In this document: in pieces, positions 41,633 through 51,691 of the stretch
Numbering within the stretch: the first letter of the stretch is position 1
Layout of the letters: each line of letters starts with the position of its first letter
Assembly (NCBI GenBank): GCA_041615815.1
Contig: JBFJCP010000010.1
Span: 52,258 to 116,257 of the forward strand
Reading direction: 5' to 3'
Length of the DNA: 64,000 nt
Source: Gemmatimonadales bacterium
GTDB lineage: Bacteria; Gemmatimonadota; Gemmatimonadetes; Gemmatimonadales; GWC2-71-9
Translations under genes and position numbers: made by a program
The notes under the pieces: generated by a model
Told to the model about the DNA's origin: nothing
The model's database searches: none
The model's input: the letters and a program-made list of their open reading frames with translations, nothing else

Positions 41633-42859
41633 GTGACCCCCTCACGACGGTCGTTCATCGGGGCCCTCGCCACGGCACCGTTGTGGCAACCATTCGCCAC
41701 CATTGGCGGCGCTGGGGTGCGACGAGCGCGCTCCGTGGCCGTGGTGGGAGCCGGCGCGTTTGGCGGATGGTCCGCCCTGGCGCTGCTCCGCGCGGGTGTC
41801 CAGGTCACCCTGGTGGATGCCTGGGGGCCGGGGAACGGACGTGCCAGCTCCGGGGGCGACACGCGCGTGATCCGCACCGAGTACGGCCCGCAGATCTGGT
41901 ACACCCAAATGGCCGCCCGGGCACAGGCGCTTTGGAGGGAGAGTCAGGCCAGGTGGAATCGCCCACTCTATCAACGGACCGGACTCATCTTGATGGTGAG
42001 CGCGGAGGACGAATACCATCGGGCGGCGCTCACGGTACTGCACGACCAAGGGATCGGTGCCGCGGCGCTCAGCCCGGCCGAGGCGGCCCGCCGGTTTCCA
42101 GAGGTCGATTTCTCGGACGTGCAGTGGGTGCTGTGGGAGGAGGATGCCGGCTACCTCCGGGCGCGAGAGGCCTGCCGGGCGGTAGTGGAGGCATTCGTCA
42201 CGGAAGGGGGGACGTATCGGACCGCTGCGGCGCGTCCCGGGAGGCTCACGGCCGCGGGGCTGGACGGCATCGAGCTCTCCGATGGCACTCGGCTGGTGCG
42301 GGACACCTACGTTTTTGCGTGTGGCCCCTGGTTGCCGCGGCTGTTTCCAGACGTGCTCGGTGATTTCGTGACAACGAGCCGCCAGGAGGTTTTTTACTTC
42401 GCCACTCCCGAAGGCGATTCCCGCTTCGACGATGATCGCTTTCCGGTTTGGGCCCATCACGGCGAGCGCTTCTTCTATGGAATACCGGGGAACGATGGGA
42501 GGGGATTCAAGATCGCGGACGACACTCGCGGTCCCCCGTTCGACCCCACACGAGAGGATCGGGTGGTGCGGCCGGAGGCCGTCGCGCGGGTCCGCGCGTA
42601 TCTGGGCATACGGTTTCCGGCGCTGGCGAACGCCCCACTGCTCGAGACGCGAGTGTGCCAGTACGCCAACACTCCAGACGGAGACTTTATTCTCGATCGG
42701 CATCCGGGCGCGGACAACACCTGGCTGGTGGGTGGCGGCTCCGGGCACGGGTTCAAGCACGGACCGGCGATCGGAGAGCTCGTTCGGGATCTGGTGACCG
42801 GACGCCGGGATCCGATACCGATGTTTACCCTTTCGCGTAATCGCGGAGGAGGACCGTGA
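41633..42859 (+). CDS. FAD-dependent oxidoreductase, sarcosine/N-methyl-amino-acid oxidase-like, with Tat motif
   Basis: SRRSFI, VVGAGAFG, SSGGDTRVIR, VCQYANTPDGDFILD, GSGHGFKHG. Confidence 0.88.
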   Translation: MTPSRRSFIGALATAPLWQPFATIGGAGVRRARSVAVVGAGAFGGWSALALLRAGVQVTLVDAWGPGNGRASSGGDTRVIRTEYGPQIWYTQMAARAQALWRESQARWNRPLYQRTGLILMVSAEDEYHRAALTVLHDQGIGAAALSPAEAARRFPEVDFSDVQWVLWEEDAGYLRAREACRAVVEAFVTEGGTYRTAAARPGRLTAAGLDGIELSDGTRLVRDTYVFACGPWLPRLFPDVLGDFVTTSRQEVFYFATPEGDSRFDDDRFPVWAHHGERFFYGIPGNDGRGFKIADDTRGPPFDPTREDRVVRPEAVARVRAYLGIRFPALANAPLLETRVCQYANTPDGDFILDRHPGADNTWLVGGGSGHGFKHGPAIGELVRDLVTGRRDPIPMFTLSRNRGGGP

Positions 42860-44217
42860 GACTTCGCCTCGGGGTGGTCGCCTCTTTCCTGGTGGCGCTT
42901 CCAGCGCCAGCACACGCGCAGTTTTCTCATGACGAGTTCCACGCCACGCTGCGGGGGTGGGCGGAATCGGTGTGGCTGCACGCGCTGGACCGTCGGAGCG
43001 CCGCAGGCGGTCGCGTGAGCGAGAACGGTATCCTCGAGCGCTTCAACGAGGTCATCGACGACAAGTACTTTCTCGATCGCTTGACGGCGGCGTTCACCCC
43101 GATCGAGGACTATGAGTGGTATGCCCGCGAGAGCGGTGTGCGATGGAGTGGTGGGAGCATCACCAAGCGGAGTCTTGCGGTCGATCTCGAGCTCAAAGCG
43201 ACTGTTCCACTCGGTGAGAAATGGGGCTTTGGCGTTCGTGTCAACAAGACGGAGTTCCCGGAGGTGAACCACACCACGTTTCGGTTCCGTCTGGCCCGAT
43301 CGCTTTCCTCTCGCCTGACCGTGTTTGCCGAGTCGTTTCTCGATCCCCAGAAGCCCGGATCCGACGTGGAGGCGGGCATCCGCTGGCGGTCACCGAGTGA
43401 CGCACGCGTCGAGGCCACCATCGGTGTCTTGGATTTCCCCAACGATTTCATCTACCTCAACTTGAACGCGCAGCGACAAACCGGTGTCGACTCCACGCTG
43501 GAATACGAACGTCAACCCATCACCGTTCGTACGTCATTTTCCGTTCCCCTGACGTCCTCGTTTCGGCTCGAGGGTCATGGCGCCGTGGCGAGGCCCTCGA
43601 CCATCCTGGCGTATGAGGGAAAGGATGAGTCCGCGGGGTTCAGGCAGCACGAACGATTCGCATTTGCCGGAGCGCTCCTGGAATGGGTTCCGCGACCGGG
43701 GCTCATGGCCGCAGCGTTCGTGAACACGGTATATGCCCGTTCCATTCGGTCACCACTTTCCGCGGCGGCGCCTGTTGCTTCGTACCGGTTGACCGAGCAA
43801 ACCACGGAGATAGGGATCGTGGGTGCAGTGCGGCTCGCGCCCCGCTGGCGCGTGGATTTTTGGGCGCGACACAGCTGGCGGCCTGAGCGTCGTGTCTTCC
43901 TGGCTGGCGAAGACGCGGATGTCGACTTCATGCTTCGGTCGTTCAACTCGCAAGCGGTGCTGACATACAGGGCGCGCAGTGGTTTTGTGGCCGATCTCGG
44001 AGTGGGATACAACAACGCCCAGACACCCCGTGGTGACGGCCAAGTGCCCTCGACGGGTTCCCTCAAGGGCATCCAGTACCGCATTCGCTACGATGCCGGC
44101 TGGCGGATTCACGACCGGTTCTCGGTGTTGGTGGGCTCGGCAACGGACATCGATGGCGAAAGCGGGGAGGGGGTGTCCTTTGGTGGTGCGCGCGGGCGTT
44201 TTGTGATGTATTGGTAA
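42856..44217 (+). CDS. Putative outer-membrane beta-barrel protein
   Basis: Signal peptide (..PAHA/QF), alternating amphipathic strands, C-terminal RFVMYW. Confidence 0.65.
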   Translation: MRLRLGVVASFLVALPAPAHAQFSHDEFHATLRGWAESVWLHALDRRSAAGGRVSENGILERFNEVIDDKYFLDRLTAAFTPIEDYEWYARESGVRWSGGSITKRSLAVDLELKATVPLGEKWGFGVRVNKTEFPEVNHTTFRFRLARSLSSRLTVFAESFLDPQKPGSDVEAGIRWRSPSDARVEATIGVLDFPNDFIYLNLNAQRQTGVDSTLEYERQPITVRTSFSVPLTSSFRLEGHGAVARPSTILAYEGKDESAGFRQHERFAFAGALLEWVPRPGLMAAAFVNTVYARSIRSPLSAAAPVASYRLTEQTTEIGIVGAVRLAPRWRVDFWARHSWRPERRVFLAGEDADVDFMLRSFNSQAVLTYRARSGFVADLGVGYNNAQTPRGDGQVPSTGSLKGIQYRIRYDAGWRIHDRFSVLVGSATDIDGESGEGVSFGGARGRFVMYW

Positions 44218-44229
44218 CATCGGTATCCG

Positions 44230-45075
44230 ATGTCCCGATCATCGCTACAGCCTTCTACGGTGATTCGGTTCGCCGTCTGCGACCGGATCGTCGACGTAAC
44301 CGTCCCGGATGACCAGACCACGGTGCCGTTGCGCCAGCTGTACCGCCCGTATGAACACCCCGGCGTGGCGAGTCCCCGCGCGGTCCCCAATACCACCATC
44401 ACGATTCGCACGACAGGAGACGGATTTGCCATCCAGCGTGTCGACGGGTCACGTCACATCTGTCCAACACTCGTGCGCCTCGCCACCGAGCTGGAGTTCG
44501 CGCTCACCGAGACGTTCCTCGAGGCGTGCCGGGAATTGCCGCAACTGCATGGCGCGGGCGCCGTGTTGGGGAGCCATGGCCTGCTTGCCCTCGGGTCGCA
44601 GGGAGCCGGCAAATCGAGTATCGCCCTCAACTGGAGCCTCGCGGGGCTTCCGCTCCTGGGTGACGACGTACTGCTCGTAGGCGAGCGCGGCCGGGTACTT
44701 CCCTTCAAGCGCCTCTGCAAGGTCGATCCGTCGATGCTCGAGGGTCGCGGTGTCCCGCTGGAGCACACCCCGTTTTGGGATGGAGTGAGCGCAGAGGCTT
44801 GGTTCGATCCGGCGACGGCGGGGGGTTGGGGCGTAAAGGGCACTGCCGCCGTGATCGCTCGAGTGCAATTCTCGGCTCGCGAACCCCTTACCGTCCGGCC
44901 CCTTGACCGTCAAGCCGTGCTCTCCCTCTTGCTCGGCAGCGTGCTCCCCACCGGGTGTGCGCGACGAGACAGCCTGGATCGTCTGATCGCGGTCGCGGAA
45001 GCAGCACGGGGATACGACATGACCTTTGGCGACGCGCACGAGGCGGCCCTCGCCCTGATCGAACTCGCAGCATGA
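44230..45075 (+). CDS. HPr-kinase-related Ser/Thr kinase
   Basis: LHGAG...GSQGAGKSS (Walker A)...LLGDDVLLV. Confidence 0.82.
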   Translation: MSRSSLQPSTVIRFAVCDRIVDVTVPDDQTTVPLRQLYRPYEHPGVASPRAVPNTTITIRTTGDGFAIQRVDGSRHICPTLVRLATELEFALTETFLEACRELPQLHGAGAVLGSHGLLALGSQGAGKSSIALNWSLAGLPLLGDDVLLVGERGRVLPFKRLCKVDPSMLEGRGVPLEHTPFWDGVSAEAWFDPATAGGWGVKGTAAVIARVQFSAREPLTVRPLDRQAVLSLLLGSVLPTGCARRDSLDRLIAVAEAARGYDMTFGDAHEAALALIELAA

Positions 45076-46184
45076 AGGATCCCCTCGCCACACGACTGTA
45101 CCGCGCGTTGGAAACAGCCGCTGGCACGCTGGATGAGCGTGATCTCGGAGCCTTCGAGTTGGCGGACGCGCTCGGTTTTGGAGGGTTTCTCAGACGGCAC
45201 GGTGATCCCCTTCACGCAAGCTCCGGGTCGTCGGCGGAGTCGTTGATGCGGCGTCTGGTCGAGCGGATCTTGGTGGACACCGCCGCGGAACTCTCCACGG
45301 TGCTCGAAGGGCTGATGGTTCCCCACTTTTTTGCCAAGGGCATCGCCCTCGTGGATTGGGTCTATCGGCCTGGAGATCGCGAGATGGGTGATATCGATCT
45401 CTATGTCCACCCCCAAGCGGCCACGATAGCCGTGAACGCCATGCGTGAAATGGGGTACCGCGACCTCCCGTCCGATGAGCAAAGTGGGCCGTCGAGCTTG
45501 CGTCCGGGTGTCGCGCTGTGCCGGGCGGATGGAGGATCAGATCTGGAGGCGGTCACGGTGGACGTACACTGGGGGGTGGAACCGGTCGACCGTCTCTTGC
45601 CGAGGGCGGACACCAACTTGCCCGAGACGATCTGGGGATCGATTCAGACCCCGGCCGCGGTTCCCATTCCGGATGCCGAGCATCACGCGGCGCTCCTGGT
45701 CTATCACCTGGCGCACCACGATCTGCTGCACGTTCGCGGACTAGTGGACCTCGCACTGGTGTGGCCCAAGATCACCGACGCTCGAACCCTACGTACGTTG
45801 GCGGTTGCCCTGGACGTCGAGCGAGCGCTCCAAGCCCTGGCGCAGGTGCTCGTTCGAGACCTCGGCCTCCCGGCGCACGCGGCGGTGGGCGCCCTGCCCG
45901 ATGACTGGCGCGGCCGACGGCTCCGGCGGCGGCTCGTGCTCCCGCGATGGATCGCGTGGGTGTGGGGATCCGATGCCCGGGAGCTCGTGGAAGTCACTCC
46001 CCGCCGAATCGGTATGCGCCTCCTGTTACTCGACGCGCTCCAGAGCGCCCTGCCACTATTGAGCGACGTCGTGTTTCCGCCGCACGCGCATCTACGCTGG
46101 CGCTGGCCAGAAGCCGAGTCCGAATGGGAGGCGTGGCGGCTGCACGCTGCGAGCGTCACCCGCAAACTCCTGCAGCGTGGATGA
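45072..46184 (+). CDS. Nucleotidyltransferase (NTP_transf_5-like)
   Basis: AKGIAL..VY....REMGDIDLYV, VDVHW; ATGA overlap with the kinase. Confidence 0.85.
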   Translation: MKDPLATRLYRALETAAGTLDERDLGAFELADALGFGGFLRRHGDPLHASSGSSAESLMRRLVERILVDTAAELSTVLEGLMVPHFFAKGIALVDWVYRPGDREMGDIDLYVHPQAATIAVNAMREMGYRDLPSDEQSGPSSLRPGVALCRADGGSDLEAVTVDVHWGVEPVDRLLPRADTNLPETIWGSIQTPAAVPIPDAEHHAALLVYHLAHHDLLHVRGLVDLALVWPKITDARTLRTLAVALDVERALQALAQVLVRDLGLPAHAAVGALPDDWRGRRLRRRLVLPRWIAWVWGSDARELVEVTPRRIGMRLLLLDALQSALPLLSDVVFPPHAHLRWRWPEAESEWEAWRLHAASVTRKLLQRG

Positions 46185-46232: not shown

Positions 46233-46523
46233 ATGAATACCGACCCGATACCCGGACGCCCCCTCGCCCGCGAGGACGTGCTGTTTCGCCAGCTCGACGA
46301 TCAGTGGGTGATCTTCGATCCAGTGACCGATCGGCTTCACGCGCTCAATCTCAGCGCGGCGCTCGTATGGACAGCATGTACCGGTGAGCGACGGATCGAC
46401 GAGATCGTCGACGACGTGGCAGAGTCGTTTGACCCGCCGGTGGATCGCGAGCGGACGCTGGGCGAGGTGACGGAAGCCATCGAACGATTTCGAGAGCAGG
46501 GGCTCCTCATTGAGCGACATTAA
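46233..46523 (+). CDS. PqqD-family RiPP recognition element
   Basis: VIFDP..RLHALNLSAALVW..CTGER.IDEIV...FREQGLL. Confidence 0.88.
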   Translation: MNTDPIPGRPLAREDVLFRQLDDQWVIFDPVTDRLHALNLSAALVWTACTGERRIDEIVDDVAESFDPPVDRERTLGEVTEAIERFREQGLLIERH

Positions 46524-47691
46524 GTACTATCGCGACCTGCTCCAACAGCGGCGCCGCATCGAAGCATTCCGGCGAGCCATCCATGCGGTAGTCCAGCCAG
46601 GAGACCGGGTTCTGGAGATCGGCGCCGGTTTGGGCACGTTCGCGTTTTTTGCAGCCGATGCCGGCGCGGCTCAGGTCTGGGCGGTGGAAGGTGACCCCAT
46701 TGTCCACGTCGCCAGCACGATTGGACAGTGGAACGGATATGCCGATCGAGTCGAATTCATGCGAGGATGGATCCCGTCGGTGGAGATCCCAGCGCCGGCT
46801 GATGTGCTCATCTTCGAGGATTTTCCGCCGCGTCTGCTGAACGGACAGTCGTTTCGGCTGCTCCGGTGGGCGCACCAGCGCTACGTCACAGCAGACGTGC
46901 GCGCCGTACCGGCCGCCGCCACGCTGTTCGTCGCACCCGTCTCCGATCCCAAGCTGTGGCAAGAGGTTGCGCCCTTTGGGGTGAATGGACCGGACGACGT
47001 TCGGTATGATGTGGATTGGAGCGCGAGCAGGGAGTACCTCGTCAACCAGCCAATCAACGTGAAGATCCCGGCGGCCGCTCTCGCGGGCGAACCTAAGCCA
47101 CTGGGGACCGTGCGTTTCGATCGCTCCCCGGCCATCCGAGATCTCGGTGGGGAGGCCCAGCTTACCGTGAACCGTTCGTGTCCGCTTCACGGGCTCGCCT
47201 TTTGGTTCGACCTGGATCTCGGTGGTGGCGAACTGCTCTCCAACGCGCCGGGGGCACGCCCCGGTTCTTGGGGTCATCTCTTTCTTCCGGTGGACAACCC
47301 TCTCGCCGCCTCGCCGAGCGAGCCGATACGAGCGCAAATCGAGGCTCGCGAGTCGGCGGATGGAGTGCCGGGCTGGCTTGCCTGGGAGGTCGCGACCGGT
47401 GGTAAGGTCTGGCGCGGTTATGAGTTAGCCGGGGTCCCCGCCGGGGTCATCGATTACGAGAGTCAAACCTCCGACTTCGTCCCCCACCTGAGCCGCGATG
47501 GGGCGCTCGAAGCCCTGGTGTTCCAGCTCACAAACGGGGAACGGTCGGTACGCGAGATTGGAACGGAGGTTCGGCGCCACCGGACGGACTTGAGCCAGGC
47601 CGAAGCCGAACGGGTCGTGACCGCGGTTTTGCGCAACCGGATCCGTCTGGACGAGGTATTCTCCGGCGTCCTGCAGGAGGGAAGCAAATGA
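46510..47691 (+). CDS. SAM-dependent methyltransferase with PRMT-like architecture and C-terminal winged helix
   Basis: RIEAFRRAI, VLEIGAGLG, AGAAQVWAVE, ADVLIFE, HGLAFWFDL, LSNAPG...SWG; tail QLTNGERSVREI. Confidence 0.82.
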   Translation: MSDIKYYRDLLQQRRRIEAFRRAIHAVVQPGDRVLEIGAGLGTFAFFAADAGAAQVWAVEGDPIVHVASTIGQWNGYADRVEFMRGWIPSVEIPAPADVLIFEDFPPRLLNGQSFRLLRWAHQRYVTADVRAVPAAATLFVAPVSDPKLWQEVAPFGVNGPDDVRYDVDWSASREYLVNQPINVKIPAAALAGEPKPLGTVRFDRSPAIRDLGGEAQLTVNRSCPLHGLAFWFDLDLGGGELLSNAPGARPGSWGHLFLPVDNPLAASPSEPIRAQIEARESADGVPGWLAWEVATGGKVWRGYELAGVPAGVIDYESQTSDFVPHLSRDGALEALVFQLTNGERSVREIGTEVRRHRTDLSQAEAERVVTAVLRNRIRLDEVFSGVLQEGSK

Positions 47692-47942
47692 AAGACGAAC
47701 AGCGACGTGAGTTCTTGAAGAAGCTGGCGAAGGGCGCAATCTACGCGGCCCCGGTGATACACAGTATGACGGCTCCGCTTGAAGTGGCAGGGCAGGGTAG
47801 TTCCACCAGTCACAAAACCGACCATGGCAACATGGGACATGGCAAGGGTGGGGCGAGTCCCGCCTCCGGTCCCTCCCTGGGCGGCCCGTCCCCCGGCTCG
47901 CAGCCGCCTCCAGGGGCGACTCCGCCATCGCGACAGCCGTAA
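47688..47942 (+). CDS. Putative RiPP-like precursor peptide (84 aa)
   Basis: AGGAGG RBS, ATGA overlap; RREFLKK and YAAPVI leader; Ser/Thr/His/Gly/Pro-rich C-terminal part. Confidence 0.75.
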   Translation: MKDEQRREFLKKLAKGAIYAAPVIHSMTAPLEVAGQGSSTSHKTDHGNMGHGKGGASPASGPSLGGPSPGSQPPPGATPPSRQP

Positions 47943-47962
47943 CCCCGGCACAGCACCGCCTT

Positions 47963-48001
47963 CACGACGCCTCTGCCCAACGGCAGAGGCGTTCGTGTAT
48001 T
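47963..48001 (+). terminator. Hairpin closing the peptide operon
   Basis: ACGCCTCTGCC-CAAC-GGCAGAGGCGT followed by TCGTGTATT. Confidence 0.65.
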
Positions 48002-48073
48002 CCGCTAGATTCCCCGGGTGACGTCCTACCAATTTGGAACATTCCGACGGGTGGAGGCGTTCTGGCAGCGACC

Positions 48074-49498
48074 ATGGACCAATTCGATCTGATCGCCGTT
48101 GGCGGTGGCACGGCTGGCTTGGTGGCCGCTGCGGGTGCAGCGAGCTTGGGTCTCCAAGTAGCGCTGGTGGAGCGTGAGGCGCTCGGCGGCGACTGTCTCT
48201 GGACCGGCTGCGTTCCGAGCAAGGCGCTCATCGCATCGGCGCGGCTGGCGCATGCCATGCGGCACGCCTCCGAGCTGGGGCTCGAGGGCGCCGCGCCCTG
48301 TCACGCGTTCGAACGGGTCATGGCGCGAATGCGCCGCGCCCGCGCCCGTGTGGCGGAGCACGACGATCCGGAGCGGTTTCGACGGCTGGGGATCGAAGTG
48401 GTGTTTGGCGCCGCCACCTTCACGGGTCCTGACCGGGTCCAGGTCAATGGGCGGACATTGACGAGTCCCCGGATCGTGCTCGCCACGGGAGCGATTCCGT
48501 CCATTCCTCCGATCCCGGGTCTCGCCGAGGTCGGGTTTCTCACGCATGCATCGGCGTTCGATCAGGAGACGCTTCCCGGCCGGATCGCAATCATCGGTGG
48601 GGGACCTATCGGTCTCGAGTTTGCCCAGATCTATCGCCGGCTGGGGGCCGAGGTAGCCGTGATCGAGATGCTTCCCCGCCTCTTGCCGTCGGAGGAACCG
48701 GACGCTGCTCTTGCCATCGAAGGCGTACTCTTCAACGAGGGGATCCGTGTCAGCACCCATGCGCGTGTGGAGCGGGTCGAACGAGGGGCACGTGGCGAGA
48801 AGGTCTTGCATGTGAAAGGTCGTTCGGGAGGCGTGGACGCCGTGGTGGCGGATGAGATCTTCGTCGCTACGGGCCGCCGGCCCGACACCGATGGCCTGAA
48901 TCTCCCGGCCGCGGGCGTGGAGATTGAGAATGGAAAGGTCCGCGTCGACGATGGCCTTCGTACCACCGCCCGGGGTATCTGGGCGGCCGGGGACGTGGCT
49001 GGCGGCCCCCAGTTCACGCACGTGGCGGACTACCAAGCCAAGCTCGTGCTCCGAAATGCCATCTTTCCGCTGGCGTCCAAGGCGAACTATGATGCGGTAC
49101 CGGCCGTAACCTATACGGACCCCGAGGTGGCGTCCGTGGGGCTCACCGAGCAGGAAGCTCGGGAGCGCTATGGCCATGCGGAGGTCTATCGCTACGAGTT
49201 CGCCGATCTGGACCGAGCCATCGTGGATGGGCATACCACGGGTTTCGTGCGGATCGTCGTGCGTAAACGCGGCAAGATCGTGGGCGCAACGATCGTGGGC
49301 AGTGGGGCCGGCGAGCTCTTGATGCCCATCGTGCTGGCGCTGAAGAACGGACTCCCGCTTCCCAAGCTCTCCCGGGTCATTTATCCGTATCCCACCATGG
49401 TCGAAGGGGTCAAGCGTACGGCGGACAGCTACTACCGATCCAAGCTCGCTGGCCGAACGGGCGCGCTGCTCCGACGCGTGGTGCGGTGGCTGACATGA
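48074..49498 (+). CDS. Pyridine nucleotide-disulfide oxidoreductase (class I; Lpd/MerA-like)
   Basis: GGGTAG, GGDCLWTGCVPSKAL, IGGGPIGLE, AAGDV, YTDPEVA, YPYPT; no C-terminal CC. Confidence 0.9.
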   Translation: MDQFDLIAVGGGTAGLVAAAGAASLGLQVALVEREALGGDCLWTGCVPSKALIASARLAHAMRHASELGLEGAAPCHAFERVMARMRRARARVAEHDDPERFRRLGIEVVFGAATFTGPDRVQVNGRTLTSPRIVLATGAIPSIPPIPGLAEVGFLTHASAFDQETLPGRIAIIGGGPIGLEFAQIYRRLGAEVAVIEMLPRLLPSEEPDAALAIEGVLFNEGIRVSTHARVERVERGARGEKVLHVKGRSGGVDAVVADEIFVATGRRPDTDGLNLPAAGVEIENGKVRVDDGLRTTARGIWAAGDVAGGPQFTHVADYQAKLVLRNAIFPLASKANYDAVPAVTYTDPEVASVGLTEQEARERYGHAEVYRYEFADLDRAIVDGHTTGFVRIVVRKRGKIVGATIVGSGAGELLMPIVLALKNGLPLPKLSRVIYPYPTMVEGVKRTADSYYRSKLAGRTGALLRRVVRWLT

Positions 49499-50196
49499 GC
49501 CGTCCAAGTCCCTACCTCAAGCTCGTGGCCCTGGTCGTCCTCATCGGCGCGGCCATGGGGGCGTATTTCTTGACCCCGCTTCGGGATGTCTTGGCGTTGG
49601 ACCGTGTGGCAGCATCGTTCGAGACACTGCGCGCATCGATGTGGGCGCCGGCGGTGTTCGTCGTGCTCTATGCCACCGCCACTGCACTCGCGATTCCCGG
49701 CTCGGCCCTGACGATCGCCGGAGGCGCTGTCTTCGGCTTCTGGTTTGGGTCGCTCCTCAACACCATCGGCGCCAACATCGGAGCCAATGCCGCCTTTGGG
49801 TTATCGCGCGCGCTCGGCAGGGACGGCGTCGAGCGAATCGCTGGCAAGCGTCTCGAGGGTCTGGACAAGGCCAGCGCGGAACACGGGTTCCTGGGCCTGC
49901 TGGTGCTGCGATTGATCCCGCTGGTTCCGTTCAACGCGTTAAACTTCGGTTCCGGTCTCACCGCTATCCGGTGGGTCCACTACGCCCTGGCGACGGTGGT
50001 GGGCATCCTGCCAGGTACGCTGGTGTATACGTTCTTTGCGGATGCTCTAGTGGAAGGATCCACGTCTGCGAGCCAGGACGCGCGGACACGACTGTGGATT
50101 GCCGGGGTGCTCTTTCTGGCGCTGGCGCTGATTCCCCTAGTCGCCAAACGACTCGGTTTCCGATTGAAGACCAATTCGTCGCGTGAGGTTGCCTGA
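49495..50196 (+). CDS. TVP38/TMEM64 (DedA/VTT) family membrane protein
   Basis: IPGSALTIAGGAVFG, LRLIPLVPFNALN, GILPGT. Confidence 0.9.
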   Translation: MSRPSPYLKLVALVVLIGAAMGAYFLTPLRDVLALDRVAASFETLRASMWAPAVFVVLYATATALAIPGSALTIAGGAVFGFWFGSLLNTIGANIGANAAFGLSRALGRDGVERIAGKRLEGLDKASAEHGFLGLLVLRLIPLVPFNALNFGSGLTAIRWVHYALATVVGILPGTLVYTFFADALVEGSTSASQDARTRLWIAGVLFLALALIPLVAKRLGFRLKTNSSREVA

Positions 50197-50999
50197 TGCC
50201 GTTGTTCGTCTCCTTGCTCGCAATGCTGGCCACCGTGCAACTCGGAGCGCCAGCGCTTCCAGACCATTCGCAGTTCGATCGGGTCCTCGAGGGTTATCTC
50301 CACGATGGTCTCGTGGATTATGCAGGTCTCAAGGCGGACCGCAACGGTTTGGACGCGTACATCACCGAACTCTCTCGCACGACGCTCCACGATCTCGCAG
50401 CCGCCTCGGTCCACGCCCAGCTCGCCTTCTGGATCAACGCCTACAACGCCTGTGCACTCCGTTTGGTTATCGATCACTATCCCATCGGGAAGCGGAAGCT
50501 GGTGGCCGGTCTCGTGAACTCCATCGCCGGTGTTCCCGACAATTCCATCCGGCAGATTCCCAACACATGGAAACGCGAGTTTTGTCCTGTGGCCGGCAAA
50601 GATCGAGCGCTCGATGAGATCGAGCACGAGATCATCCGTCCCATGGGCGATCCACGGATTCACTTCGCCGTGAACTGTGCGTCCCGTTCGTGCCCGGTGT
50701 TGGCACCGACGGCCTACCGCGCGGATTCACTGGACGCCCAGCTGGACGCGGCGGTAGGTCGCCTCATGGAGGACCCGCAGCACTTCACCTTCGAGCGTGG
50801 CGAGGCTCCGATACTTCGGCTGAACAAGGTGCTCGATTGGTATAAAGACGATTTCGGCGGGACCTCCGGTGTCGTGGAGTTCTTCACGCGCTATTTGCCG
50901 GAGGCAGAAGCAACGATGCTTCGCACACGGGAAGTGAAGGTGGAGTACTTCGAGTACGACTGGACCCTGAATGACACGGCGGTCTTCGGCGCCAGTTGA
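50196..50999 (+). CDS. DUF547 domain protein (exported)
   Basis: VDYAGL, AFWINAYNA, IEHEIIR, DPRIHFAVNCASRSCP, YDWTLN. Confidence 0.9.
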   Translation: MPLFVSLLAMLATVQLGAPALPDHSQFDRVLEGYLHDGLVDYAGLKADRNGLDAYITELSRTTLHDLAAASVHAQLAFWINAYNACALRLVIDHYPIGKRKLVAGLVNSIAGVPDNSIRQIPNTWKREFCPVAGKDRALDEIEHEIIRPMGDPRIHFAVNCASRSCPVLAPTAYRADSLDAQLDAAVGRLMEDPQHFTFERGEAPILRLNKVLDWYKDDFGGTSGVVEFFTRYLPEAEATMLRTREVKVEYFEYDWTLNDTAVFGAS

Positions 51000-51691
51000 C
51001 CGCCGTGACCCACTGCGCCGTCATCATCCCTACGCTGAACGAGGCGCGCTTCCTCCCTCGACTCCTGGAGGATTTGCGTCCGCTCGACGGGTTGGACGAG
51101 GTCATCGTCGTCGACGGCGGTTCTACGGATGATACCCTGCAACTTGCACACGACGCGGGCGCACGGGTGCTCACGGCGCCCCGTGGGCGTGCCAGCCAGC
51201 TGAATGTCGGCGCCGTGGCGAGCACTGCCCCATGGCTGTGTTTTCTGCACGCGGATGTGCGTGTGCCCGCTGGCGCTCGAGCGGAGCTGCAAAAGACGCT
51301 GACGCGGGCAAGCGTGGATGTAGCCGTCTGGCGCTTTGCGATTGACGAGCGGGGCGCGTGGTTTCGCATCGTGGAATTTGGGGCCTGGCTCCGCGACCGG
51401 CTTGGCGGGATGCCGTATGGCGATCAGGGCCTCTTGGTCCGTCGGCCGTTGTTCGAGGCTGTGGGCGGCTATCCGCCCATCCCGATCATGGAGGATGTGG
51501 CATTGCTCCGCACACTTCGGTCCTGCCGCCGCGTGCGACGATTGCGGTCTCCGCTGCTCGTCTCTCCCCGACGCTGGCACCGTGAGGGCCCCTTTCGCAC
51601 GTGGATGAGGAATATTGCGCTCGTGGTGGCTTATGCCGCTGGCGTTTCACCGCATCGCTTATCGCGCTGGTATCGGCCCGAGCCGCAGTGA
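50996..51691 (+). CDS. GT2 glycosyltransferase, TIGR04283-like
   Basis: IIPTLNEA, VDGGSTDDT, RGRASQLNVGA, FLHAD, PYGDQG, PIMEDV, SPRRW. Confidence 0.88.
   Translation: MTAVTHCAVIIPTLNEARFLPRLLEDLRPLDGLDEVIVVDGGSTDDTLQLAHDAGARVLTAPRGRASQLNVGAVASTAPWLCFLHADVRVPAGARAELQKTLTRASVDVAVWRFAIDERGAWFRIVEFGAWLRDRLGGMPYGDQGLLVRRPLFEAVGGYPPIPIMEDVALLRTLRSCRRVRRLRSPLLVSPRRWHREGPFRTWMRNIALVVAYAAGVSPHRLSRWYRPEPQ

Follow-up and report, generated by a model that had tools for sequence, protein, structure and literature searches.

The question raised by this locus is how a short peptide could be modified and exported when the genes beside it encode neither a protease nor a transporter. The window is a 64,000-nucleotide stretch of Gemmatimonadales DNA. 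A first-pass annotation had suggested that an 84-residue peptide encoded there carries a leader with two functions, first recruiting an RRE and then routing the modified peptide through the Tat pathway. We likewise infer such a double-duty leader. The peptide gene is the last of five genes on the plus strand, in the order HprK-like kinase, NTP_transf_5 nucleotidyltransferase, RRE, methyltransferase, and peptide. The features are as follows.

44230..45075, +, HprK-like kinase (below-cut-off matches to PF07475 and TIGR04352; Walker A GxxGxGKS and DD conserved)
45072..46184, +, NTP_transf_5 nucleotidyltransferase (PF14907, E 7e-21; DxD conserved)
46233..46523, +, discrete PqqD-family RRE (PF05402, E 4e-12)
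46510..47691, +, PRMT-fold SAM methyltransferase with a C-terminal helical extension (PRMT6 by sequence and fold)
47675..47680, +, Shine-Dalgarno sequence AGGAGG, 7 nt 5' of the ATG (sequence)
47688..47942, +, precursor peptide gene, 84 aa (translation, homologues, codon-level selection)
47688..47792, +, predicted conserved 35-residue leader (family alignment)
47703..47720, +, twin-arginine motif RRxFLK (RREFLK), residues 6-11 (RR 115/120, Phe 106/120, Leu 104/120)
47742..47759, +, YxxPxI, putative RRE-binding motif, residues 19-24, within the h-region (Tyr 110/120; complex model)
47775..47792, +, c-region with Pro(-6), Val(-3), and Gly(-1); predicted signal peptidase I site before Gln36 (motif)
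47793..47939, +, 49-residue core with a Ser-rich start, a Lys/His/Met/Gly segment, and a Pro-rich end (composition, family alignment)
47796..47816, +, Ser/Thr-then-His/Lys segment, core +2 to +8 (family counts)
47963..47997, +, strong hairpin 3' of the peptide stop (fold of 47943-48030)

The translation of 47688-47942 (+) given in the first-pass annotation was reproduced exactly, and the tail from Gln36 has the claimed 49 residues with 9 Ser, 3 Thr, 3 His, 2 Lys, 1 Arg, and 0 Cys. The ATG overlaps the stop codon of the methyltransferase gene (ATGA), and GC3 is 0.68 vs 0.69-0.76 in the neighbouring genes. When the codons for residues 6-25 were compared with those of 10 homologous loci, 50, 22, and 105 differences fell at codon positions 1, 2, and 3, and 85 codon changes were synonymous while 43 were non-synonymous. 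This excess marks the ORF as protein-coding and subject to selection. When the 4.19-Mb genome was scanned in six frames with a loose RR...aromatic-xx-P pattern, 13 ORF starts matched, two of which adjoin the two RRE matches of the genome. With its ribosome-binding site, codon selection, and 121 family representatives, the 84-codon ORF is a real gene. The sequence 3' of the stop (47943-48030) folds at -37.2 kcal/mol (z -4.16, 0 of 200 shuffles); the hairpin is possibly a transcript end or stabiliser, although a terminator scan did not call it. A promoter scan returned 0 sites. Within the same cassette, ATG at 45072 is a likelier start for the nucleotidyltransferase than GTG at 44955.

On the 5' side of the cassette, 42856-44217 encodes a 453-aa protein without a Pfam match that resembles outer-membrane beta-barrels in the ESM Atlas (0.94-0.97). 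It was considered as a dedicated exporter and ruled out, since it adjoins the cassette in just 2 of 34 loci. On the 3' side, 48074-51691 encodes an FAD oxidoreductase, a VTT protein, a DUF547 protein, and a TIGR04283 arsenosugar-type glycosyltransferase. The same run follows the cassette in 13 of 43 clustered loci, also where the cassette order is altered (L076). This block is probably synteny among relatives, and it may be a partner of the nucleotidyltransferase.

The peptide family was defined by a profile search, with matches at E < 1e-9 in 17 of 401 Gemmatimonadota genomes; one of these is the unpublished genome G132, which enters no other claim. All 17 genome records with true matches are Gemmatimonadota, and an 18th, weak match in Pirellula was dropped. 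The family has no Pfam or NCBIfam model covering it. TIGR01409 (TAT_signal_seq) matched 7 of 98 members at E <= 0.01 (best 8e-5), with no match in the other 91, the window peptide included. TIGR02811 also gave weak matches to 7 of 98 members (E 0.007 for the window peptide). The best matches in the ESM Atlas (0.90-0.91) are unnamed, and the nearest named clusters (0.78-0.81), which are leads only, include a Tat-signal domain. None of 8000 scored candidates was a longer protein (199-2000 aa) with this leader, which is weak evidence.

We examined 61 loci and dropped four with no true peptide (L072, L088, L089, and L090, with no matches or weak ones) and 12 duplicates, leaving 45. At least one cassette gene is present at 43 of these 45 non-redundant peptide loci, and the other two have at most 206 nt upstream. 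Among the 34 loci with at least 3.3 kb upstream, the RRE is found in 33, the kinase in 31, the methyltransferase in 31, and the nucleotidyltransferase in 25, and all four occur together in 25. Two loci have the RRE and methyltransferase only and four lack the nucleotidyltransferase alone, and thus the cassette enzymes are modular. Starting from the enzyme, 3 of 3 close methyltransferase homologues are followed by such a peptide.

The first-pass annotation had noted a missing protease and transporter. This is confirmed for the window cassette, and neither a peptidase nor a conserved exporter is linked to the peptide in the 61 loci. A lasso B2 peptidase had 0 matches in these loci, as did an S26 (SpI-type) peptidase when the two S26 proteins of the genome itself were used as queries, and no conserved protease family was found among the unassigned flanking genes. 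One cyclase-like gene was found in the 61 loci, 8.6 kb from the peptide. An ABC transporter gene occurs in three member loci, directly downstream of the peptide only in L074, and is absent from the window cassette. Elsewhere, the genome encodes two S26 peptidases away from the cassette. Its sole B2-like match is weak (E 2e-5) and lies inside a 546-aa frame; an unlinked B2-like protein is present in 4 of 9 cassette genomes.

The same genome contains a second cassette on another contig (L036, contig C15, 8189-10742, minus strand), with a peptide followed by an RRE, an HprK-like kinase, and an NTP_transf_5 protein. Its peptide has an RR...WxxPVV...AxA/Q leader and a Ser/Thr-free, Tyr-containing core, a type that recurs in L152. 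The coexistence of Y-type and W-type leaders within a genome resembles the discrimination between LPP and paeninodin. A degenerate second peptide copy with His for Tyr lies at a contig end in L084 (8462-8875, G002), and two differing precursors stand in tandem in L085 (9779-10312, G356).

Both motifs claimed for the leader are present, RRxFLK at residues 6-11 and YxxPxI at residues 19-24, and both are conserved among the homologues, which was the test on which the double-duty idea had been staked. The family comprises 121 representatives at 50% clustering, of which 120 could be anchored on aromatic-xx-P; since the profile is dominated by the leader and the alignment is anchored on this motif, the following figures are inflated. 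RR is kept in 115 of 120 leaders (the others have RK, KR, or DR), and the residue before it is D, S, T, or N in 109. The Tyr of YxxP is kept in 110 of 120 and a Ser or Thr seven residues after it in 117. The sixth position in the window peptide is Ile, which falls within the published lasso RRE-binding motif [Y/W]xxPx[L/V/I/F/A], as given in the available text of PMC13381572. In the c-region, Pro(-6) occurs in 110 of 120 leaders, L/A/V(-3) in 115, and A/G/S(-1) in 114, with Gln(+1) after the predicted site in 85. The proposed signal-peptidase-type site at VAG/Q thus holds as a motif, the signal peptidase I register being satisfied by 113 of 120 leaders, while the LPP register (Tyr at -16) places a small residue at -1 in only 38. 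A subtype with Ile rather than Gln at +1 was observed in L075, L100, L101, and L108, where the peptide adjoins the kinase gene and the methyltransferase was not detected.

A Tat signal consists of an S-R-R-x-F-L-K motif, a moderately hydrophobic h-region that spans at least 12 residues and contains a helix breaker, and a site for a peptidase, and Arg-to-Lys changes in the signal are poorly tolerated, according to the consulted part of PMC7317946. The first-pass annotation had worried that the h-region is weak. We compared the family with 21 Tat-like ORFs from the same genome, picked by eye from 39 pattern hits. The best 12-residue hydropathy is 1.42 in the window peptide and has a median of 1.49 in the family and 1.67 in the controls (range 1.06-2.27). 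The window peptide therefore falls inside the control range, and the worry is smaller than feared. It has 14 uncharged residues within the 22 after RR, and at least 13 are found in 83 of 116 family members vs 18 of 21 controls. Aromatic-xx-P-x-hydrophobic occurs in 0 of the 21 controls. Lys and Arg just after RRxFL number three in the window peptide, with a median of two in the family and one in the controls. All 6 genomes tested, that of the window among them, encode TatC, which says little because TatC is probably common in the phylum. RR is also kept in all seven loci without a detected methyltransferase (several of them on short contigs), which argues against RR being solely a target of that enzyme. 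The 49-residue core, with 43% Gly and Pro, is probably disordered, and this counts against the Tat route, as Tat rejects most unfolded proteins (available portion of PMC7317946). A preliminary attempt at routing lanthipeptide fusions through Tat was unsuccessful, as far as the consulted portion of PMC5686179 relates. No Tat-routed or twin-arginine RRE precursor was found among the literature matches listed, in a search that left most subscription journals outside.

For the second function of the leader, the RRE was modelled with residues 1-44 of the peptide. The complex scored 0.52 vs 0.00 for the best of three controls, the runs agreed in at least 96% of contacts, and the partner had a pLDDT of at least 63. 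Of 157 solved complexes, 116 reach the mark that we used, as do 2 of 215 mismatches; those that do so with a score of 0.60 or less comprise 18 solved complexes and both mismatches. The score may also reflect solved lasso RRE-leader structures. The model thus suggests only weakly that the RRE binds YxxPxI, and the motif together with the genetic linkage is the stronger argument. In the LPP system, binding by LppB was reduced by Y-to-A and P-to-A changes in the leader, according to the available text of PMC13381572.

The methyltransferase matches PRMT6 over residues 2-282 by sequence (E 3e-24). Its fold was taken from an alignment (pLDDT 92, whereas the single-sequence fold reached only 36) and contains the Rossmann fold and beta-barrel, with a Foldseek match to PRMT6 at E 7e-28. 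In PRMTs, the second Glu of the double-E loop and the His of the THW loop hold the substrate guanidinium. In this family, the first Glu is present in 32 of 32 rows and the second in only 1, and the THW loop reads mostly SWG, so that the His is lost. A fused RRE at the C-terminus was not upheld (hhalign probability 27%, 42 columns, helices only). In one locus (L064, 4142-7997) an insertion-like gap of about 2.7 kb splits the methyltransferase gene, which is intact in L093 (6834-7997), which has the same peptide.

The core is variable apart from its start and a Pro-Trp pair found in 67 of 100 Gln-defined cores. The SSTS and His residues singled out by the first-pass annotation are not conserved (2 and 36 of 100 Gln-defined cores), and an early Ser is kept instead. 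Ser or Thr occurs within core +2 to +8 in 112 of 120 members and Ser at +3 to +5 in 91, [ST]x0-2[KH] is present in 71 of 120, and the Ser share at +2 to +8 is 17.5% vs 7.2% in the remaining core. These family counts suggest that the Ser/Thr-His/Lys segment at +2 to +8 likely holds the modification sites. We looked at the opening 14 residues of 36 cores that come from methyltransferase loci: 1 core has Arg there, 31 have Lys or His, 27 have Met, and 35 have Ser, with Thr in the other one; the five cores without Lys or His are Met-rich. Ser/Thr or its phosphate is the sole group common to all 36. As a guess from composition, Lys or His might be the first choice of methyl acceptor. Gln was dropped as a candidate, early Gln being absent in several methyltransferase loci. 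Metal binding or envelope signalling can be guessed as a role from the His- and Met-rich cores.

The sister methyltransferases provide a contrast. Among 36 genomes with a methyltransferase homologue, 15 are cassette genomes and 21 are others; in 16 of these 21 the gene lies in a paeninodin-like lasso cluster (with a cyclase, B2, and/or an ABC exporter), and in five it is alone or on a short contig. Precursors were obtained from 15 of the 16 lasso clusters. Of these 21 peptides, none has RRxFL and all have the lasso Thr. Thus, clusters with their own processing and export genes have leaders without Tat features, while clusters lacking such genes have leaders with them. In an unrooted tree of 44 rows, including a subset of 23 cassette rows, the cassette methyltransferases form one side of a branch with 100/100 support, so the contrast is a single split and not 21 independent events. 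The lasso clusters (L034, L035, and L164-L177), all from Gemmatimonadota and with the PRMT-fold methyltransferase, have precursors with terminal Lys/Arg-Ser/Thr tails, and a cluster often contains two or three precursors. No PRMT-type RiPP enzyme was found among the literature matches listed.

Two other precursor types were observed. L147, L148 (three copies), L151, L153-L156, and L158 encode, next to HprK-like kinases, RRE-fused precursors that contain an RR...LxPxI...AxA segment and have tails that are mostly rich in Cys. Their RR leaders are internal, about 100 residues in, and an enzyme-docking role fits such a position as well. L159-L162 encode short YxxP peptides without RR and with a Trp-Trp motif at the end, adjoining an RRE and a kinase; they are another precursor family.

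Lasso precursors have Thr(-2) in the leader and Asp or Glu at core position 7-9. The leader Thr is also described in the available part of PMC10368454. In the cassette family Thr(-2) is found in 5 of 100 peptides and Asp/Glu at core 7-9 in 12 of 100, and the cassette has neither B2 nor a cyclase. A lasso peptide, the product type that the first-pass annotation had associated with the motif, was therefore ruled out as the identity of the product. That the enzymes for a lasso product are encoded elsewhere is scarcely probable. The YxxPxI motif, the enzymes in common with paeninodin-type clusters, and the unlinked B2-like genes in 4 of 9 genomes speak for such a precursor, but the Thr and ring-acid counts argue against it, as does the weakness of the only B2 match in the genome (E 2e-5, 546-aa frame).

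The closest known system is that of the linear polyphosphorylated peptides (LPP; lppA-K-B-S-D-N of Paenibacillus alginolyticus, Popov et al. 2026, PMC13381572), which we compared on the basis of the available text. Both systems combine a discrete RRE with an HprK-like kinase plus an NTP transferase and have no macrolactam cyclase, and both have a YxxP leader, a variable core, and an early core Ser. The LPP leader is removed by an enzyme of the signal peptidase I type, as predicted for the cassette peptide, but LPP clusters encode their own SpI peptidase (LppS) and an MsbA-like exporter (LppD), while the cassette has no linked peptidase or conserved exporter. The LPP leader consensus YxxPxVLxHQxIxFETxxS is shared only in its YxxP; Phe(-3) occurs in 2 and Thr(-1) in 5 of 120 family leaders in the LPP register. 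The LPP leader is cut with Tyr at -16, while the cassette leader has Tyr at -17 and a small residue at -1. Tat is not mentioned in the main text of PMC13381572, whereas the cassette leader has RRxFLK before YxxP. The PRMT-fold methyltransferase is an addition relative to LPP, and LPP are described there as restricted to Bacillota, while the cassette peptides are from Gemmatimonadota. Thus, the cassette peptide resembles an LPP in the way it would work, but the lack of a cluster peptidase and exporter and the differing leader consensus set it apart from the LPP.

Phosphorylated lasso peptides of the paeninodin/pseudomycoidin type (PsmK and PsmN, consulted text of PMC9266682) likewise combine a kinase, a nucleotidyltransferase, and an RRE acting on Ser. 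In those peptides the Ser is at the C-terminus, while in the cassette peptide it is near the N-terminus of the core, and the cassette lacks B2, the cyclase, Thr(-2), and the ring Asp/Glu. The PRMT-fold enzyme is common to the cassette and the paeninodin-type sister clusters of the same phylum. In bufferins and oxazolins (PMC12452194) and RiPP-lipoproteins (PMC13056109), a general export signal replaces the leader, as proposed here, and the bufferin signal was proposed to belong to the sequence that is recognised and to stay masked until the peptide has been modified (PMC12452194, available portion). Bufferins and RiPP-lipoproteins differ from the cassette in using Sec or lipoprotein signals, MNIO enzymes on Cys, and an RRE fused to DUF2063; "Tat" occurs 0 times in the main texts of PMC12452194 and PMC13056109, as available. 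The uncharacterised HPr-rel-A system (TIGR04352 kinase and TIGR04353 PqqD chaperone) shows the same pairing of an HprK-related kinase with a PqqD-family protein, but the cassette scores far below its cut-offs (18.6 vs 200 and 24.1 vs 35).

We consider it probable, with real room for doubt, that the product is a linear RiPP, phosphorylated on Ser and methylated, and that its leader first binds the RRE and afterwards directs the peptide to Tat and signal peptidase I. In this interpretation of the locus, the leader motifs and the lack of a linked protease or conserved transporter stand from the first-pass annotation, while the SSTS/His sites and the lasso-type product do not. By the sequence-level evidence, the peptide gene would be translated with the cassette. 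The discrete RRE, as modelled weakly, would bind YxxPxI in the h-region, and this binding might keep the peptide in the cytoplasm with its signal masked. From the enzymes of LPP and paeninodin type and their motifs, the HprK-like kinase is expected to phosphorylate or polyphosphorylate an early core Ser (+3/+4), and the nucleotidyltransferase might add a nucleotidyl or glycosyl group to the Ser phosphate. LppK phosphorylates core Ser3 behind a YxxP leader (available text of PMC13381572), and PsmN was proposed to decorate the phosphate further (available text of PMC9266682). The PRMT-fold enzyme would then methylate a nearby non-Arg group, likeliest the Lys or His of the S-x-K/H segment, with the Ser-phosphate or Met as alternative acceptors. 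After release from the RRE, RRxFLK would engage TatC, and signal peptidase I would cut before Gln36, delivering a 49-residue modified peptide to the periplasm, possibly with an N-terminal pyroglutamate.

Other explanations attribute the twin arginines or the enzymes to something else. The peptide might be a RiPP precursor that stays in the cytoplasm or is exported otherwise, with RRxFLKKLAK as an amphipathic helix on which the kinase, nucleotidyltransferase, or methyltransferase docks and which only resembles a Tat motif, and with an unlinked protease and transporter (or Sec) finishing the product. The extra basic residues after RRxFL, the probably disordered core, and the internal RR leaders of the RRE-fused precursors keep this alternative alive, and it is also favoured by the preference of Tat for folded cargo, the ABC gene beside L074, and the second S26 peptidase elsewhere in the genome. 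We nevertheless regard it as rather unlikely: the sister kinases and methyltransferases in lasso clusters pair with precursors without RRxFL (0/21), Arg is strongly favoured over Lys (115/120), and the full n/h/c layout with its -6/-3/-1 rules (113/120) would apparently have no purpose without a signal peptidase.

Conversely, the leader might be a functional Tat signal on a short peptide left unmodified by the cassette, similar to the TIGR02811 Tat targets of formate dehydrogenase regions, or on a Tat-signal decoy or regulator. The weak TIGR02811 matches (E 0.007 for the window peptide; 7/98 members) and the very variable core are consistent with this, but an RRE in 33 of 34 loci, the absence of aromatic-xx-P-x-hydrophobic from 21 of 21 control Tat-like ORFs, and the enrichment of Ser at +2 to +8 (17.5% vs 7.2%) make it improbable. 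That the methyltransferase targets the leader arginines, RR then being conserved either because a PRMT acts on it or because its methylation switches export, is suggested by the PRMT6 fold and by the leader holding the sole conserved Arg, since early-core Arg occurs in 1 of 36 cores. It seems very improbable, because other residues stand in place of the second Glu and the THW His, all 7 loci in which no methyltransferase was detected still have RR, and the sister enzymes serve RR-less lasso precursors.

On the Tat-routed reading, the peptide family gives a precursor and a maturation route to orphan RRE-kinase-nucleotidyltransferase cassettes without a protease or exporter. We suggest that such precursors have been missed by genome miners because they resemble fragments of Tat signals. 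The PRMT-fold enzyme, shared with lasso clusters, is a candidate for new tailoring chemistry. More tentatively, a shade under even in our estimation, these cassettes might represent a RiPP class that is widespread but undescribed, with a single leader recognised successively by the RRE, TatC, and signal peptidase I, and with the RRE blocking export until the kinase, the nucleotidyltransferase, and a non-arginine PRMT-fold enzyme (possibly acting on the Ser-phosphate) have finished. This would be the first natural Tat-routed RiPP, with Y- and W-type versions in one genome, and its RRE would resemble the proofreading chaperones of Tat redox enzymes. If the proposed export is true, a RiPP leader and a Tat signal can be the same sequence, Tat transports peptides that are small, modified, and probably unfolded, and the timing of export can be set by an RRE, which could be of use in the engineered secretion of modified peptides.
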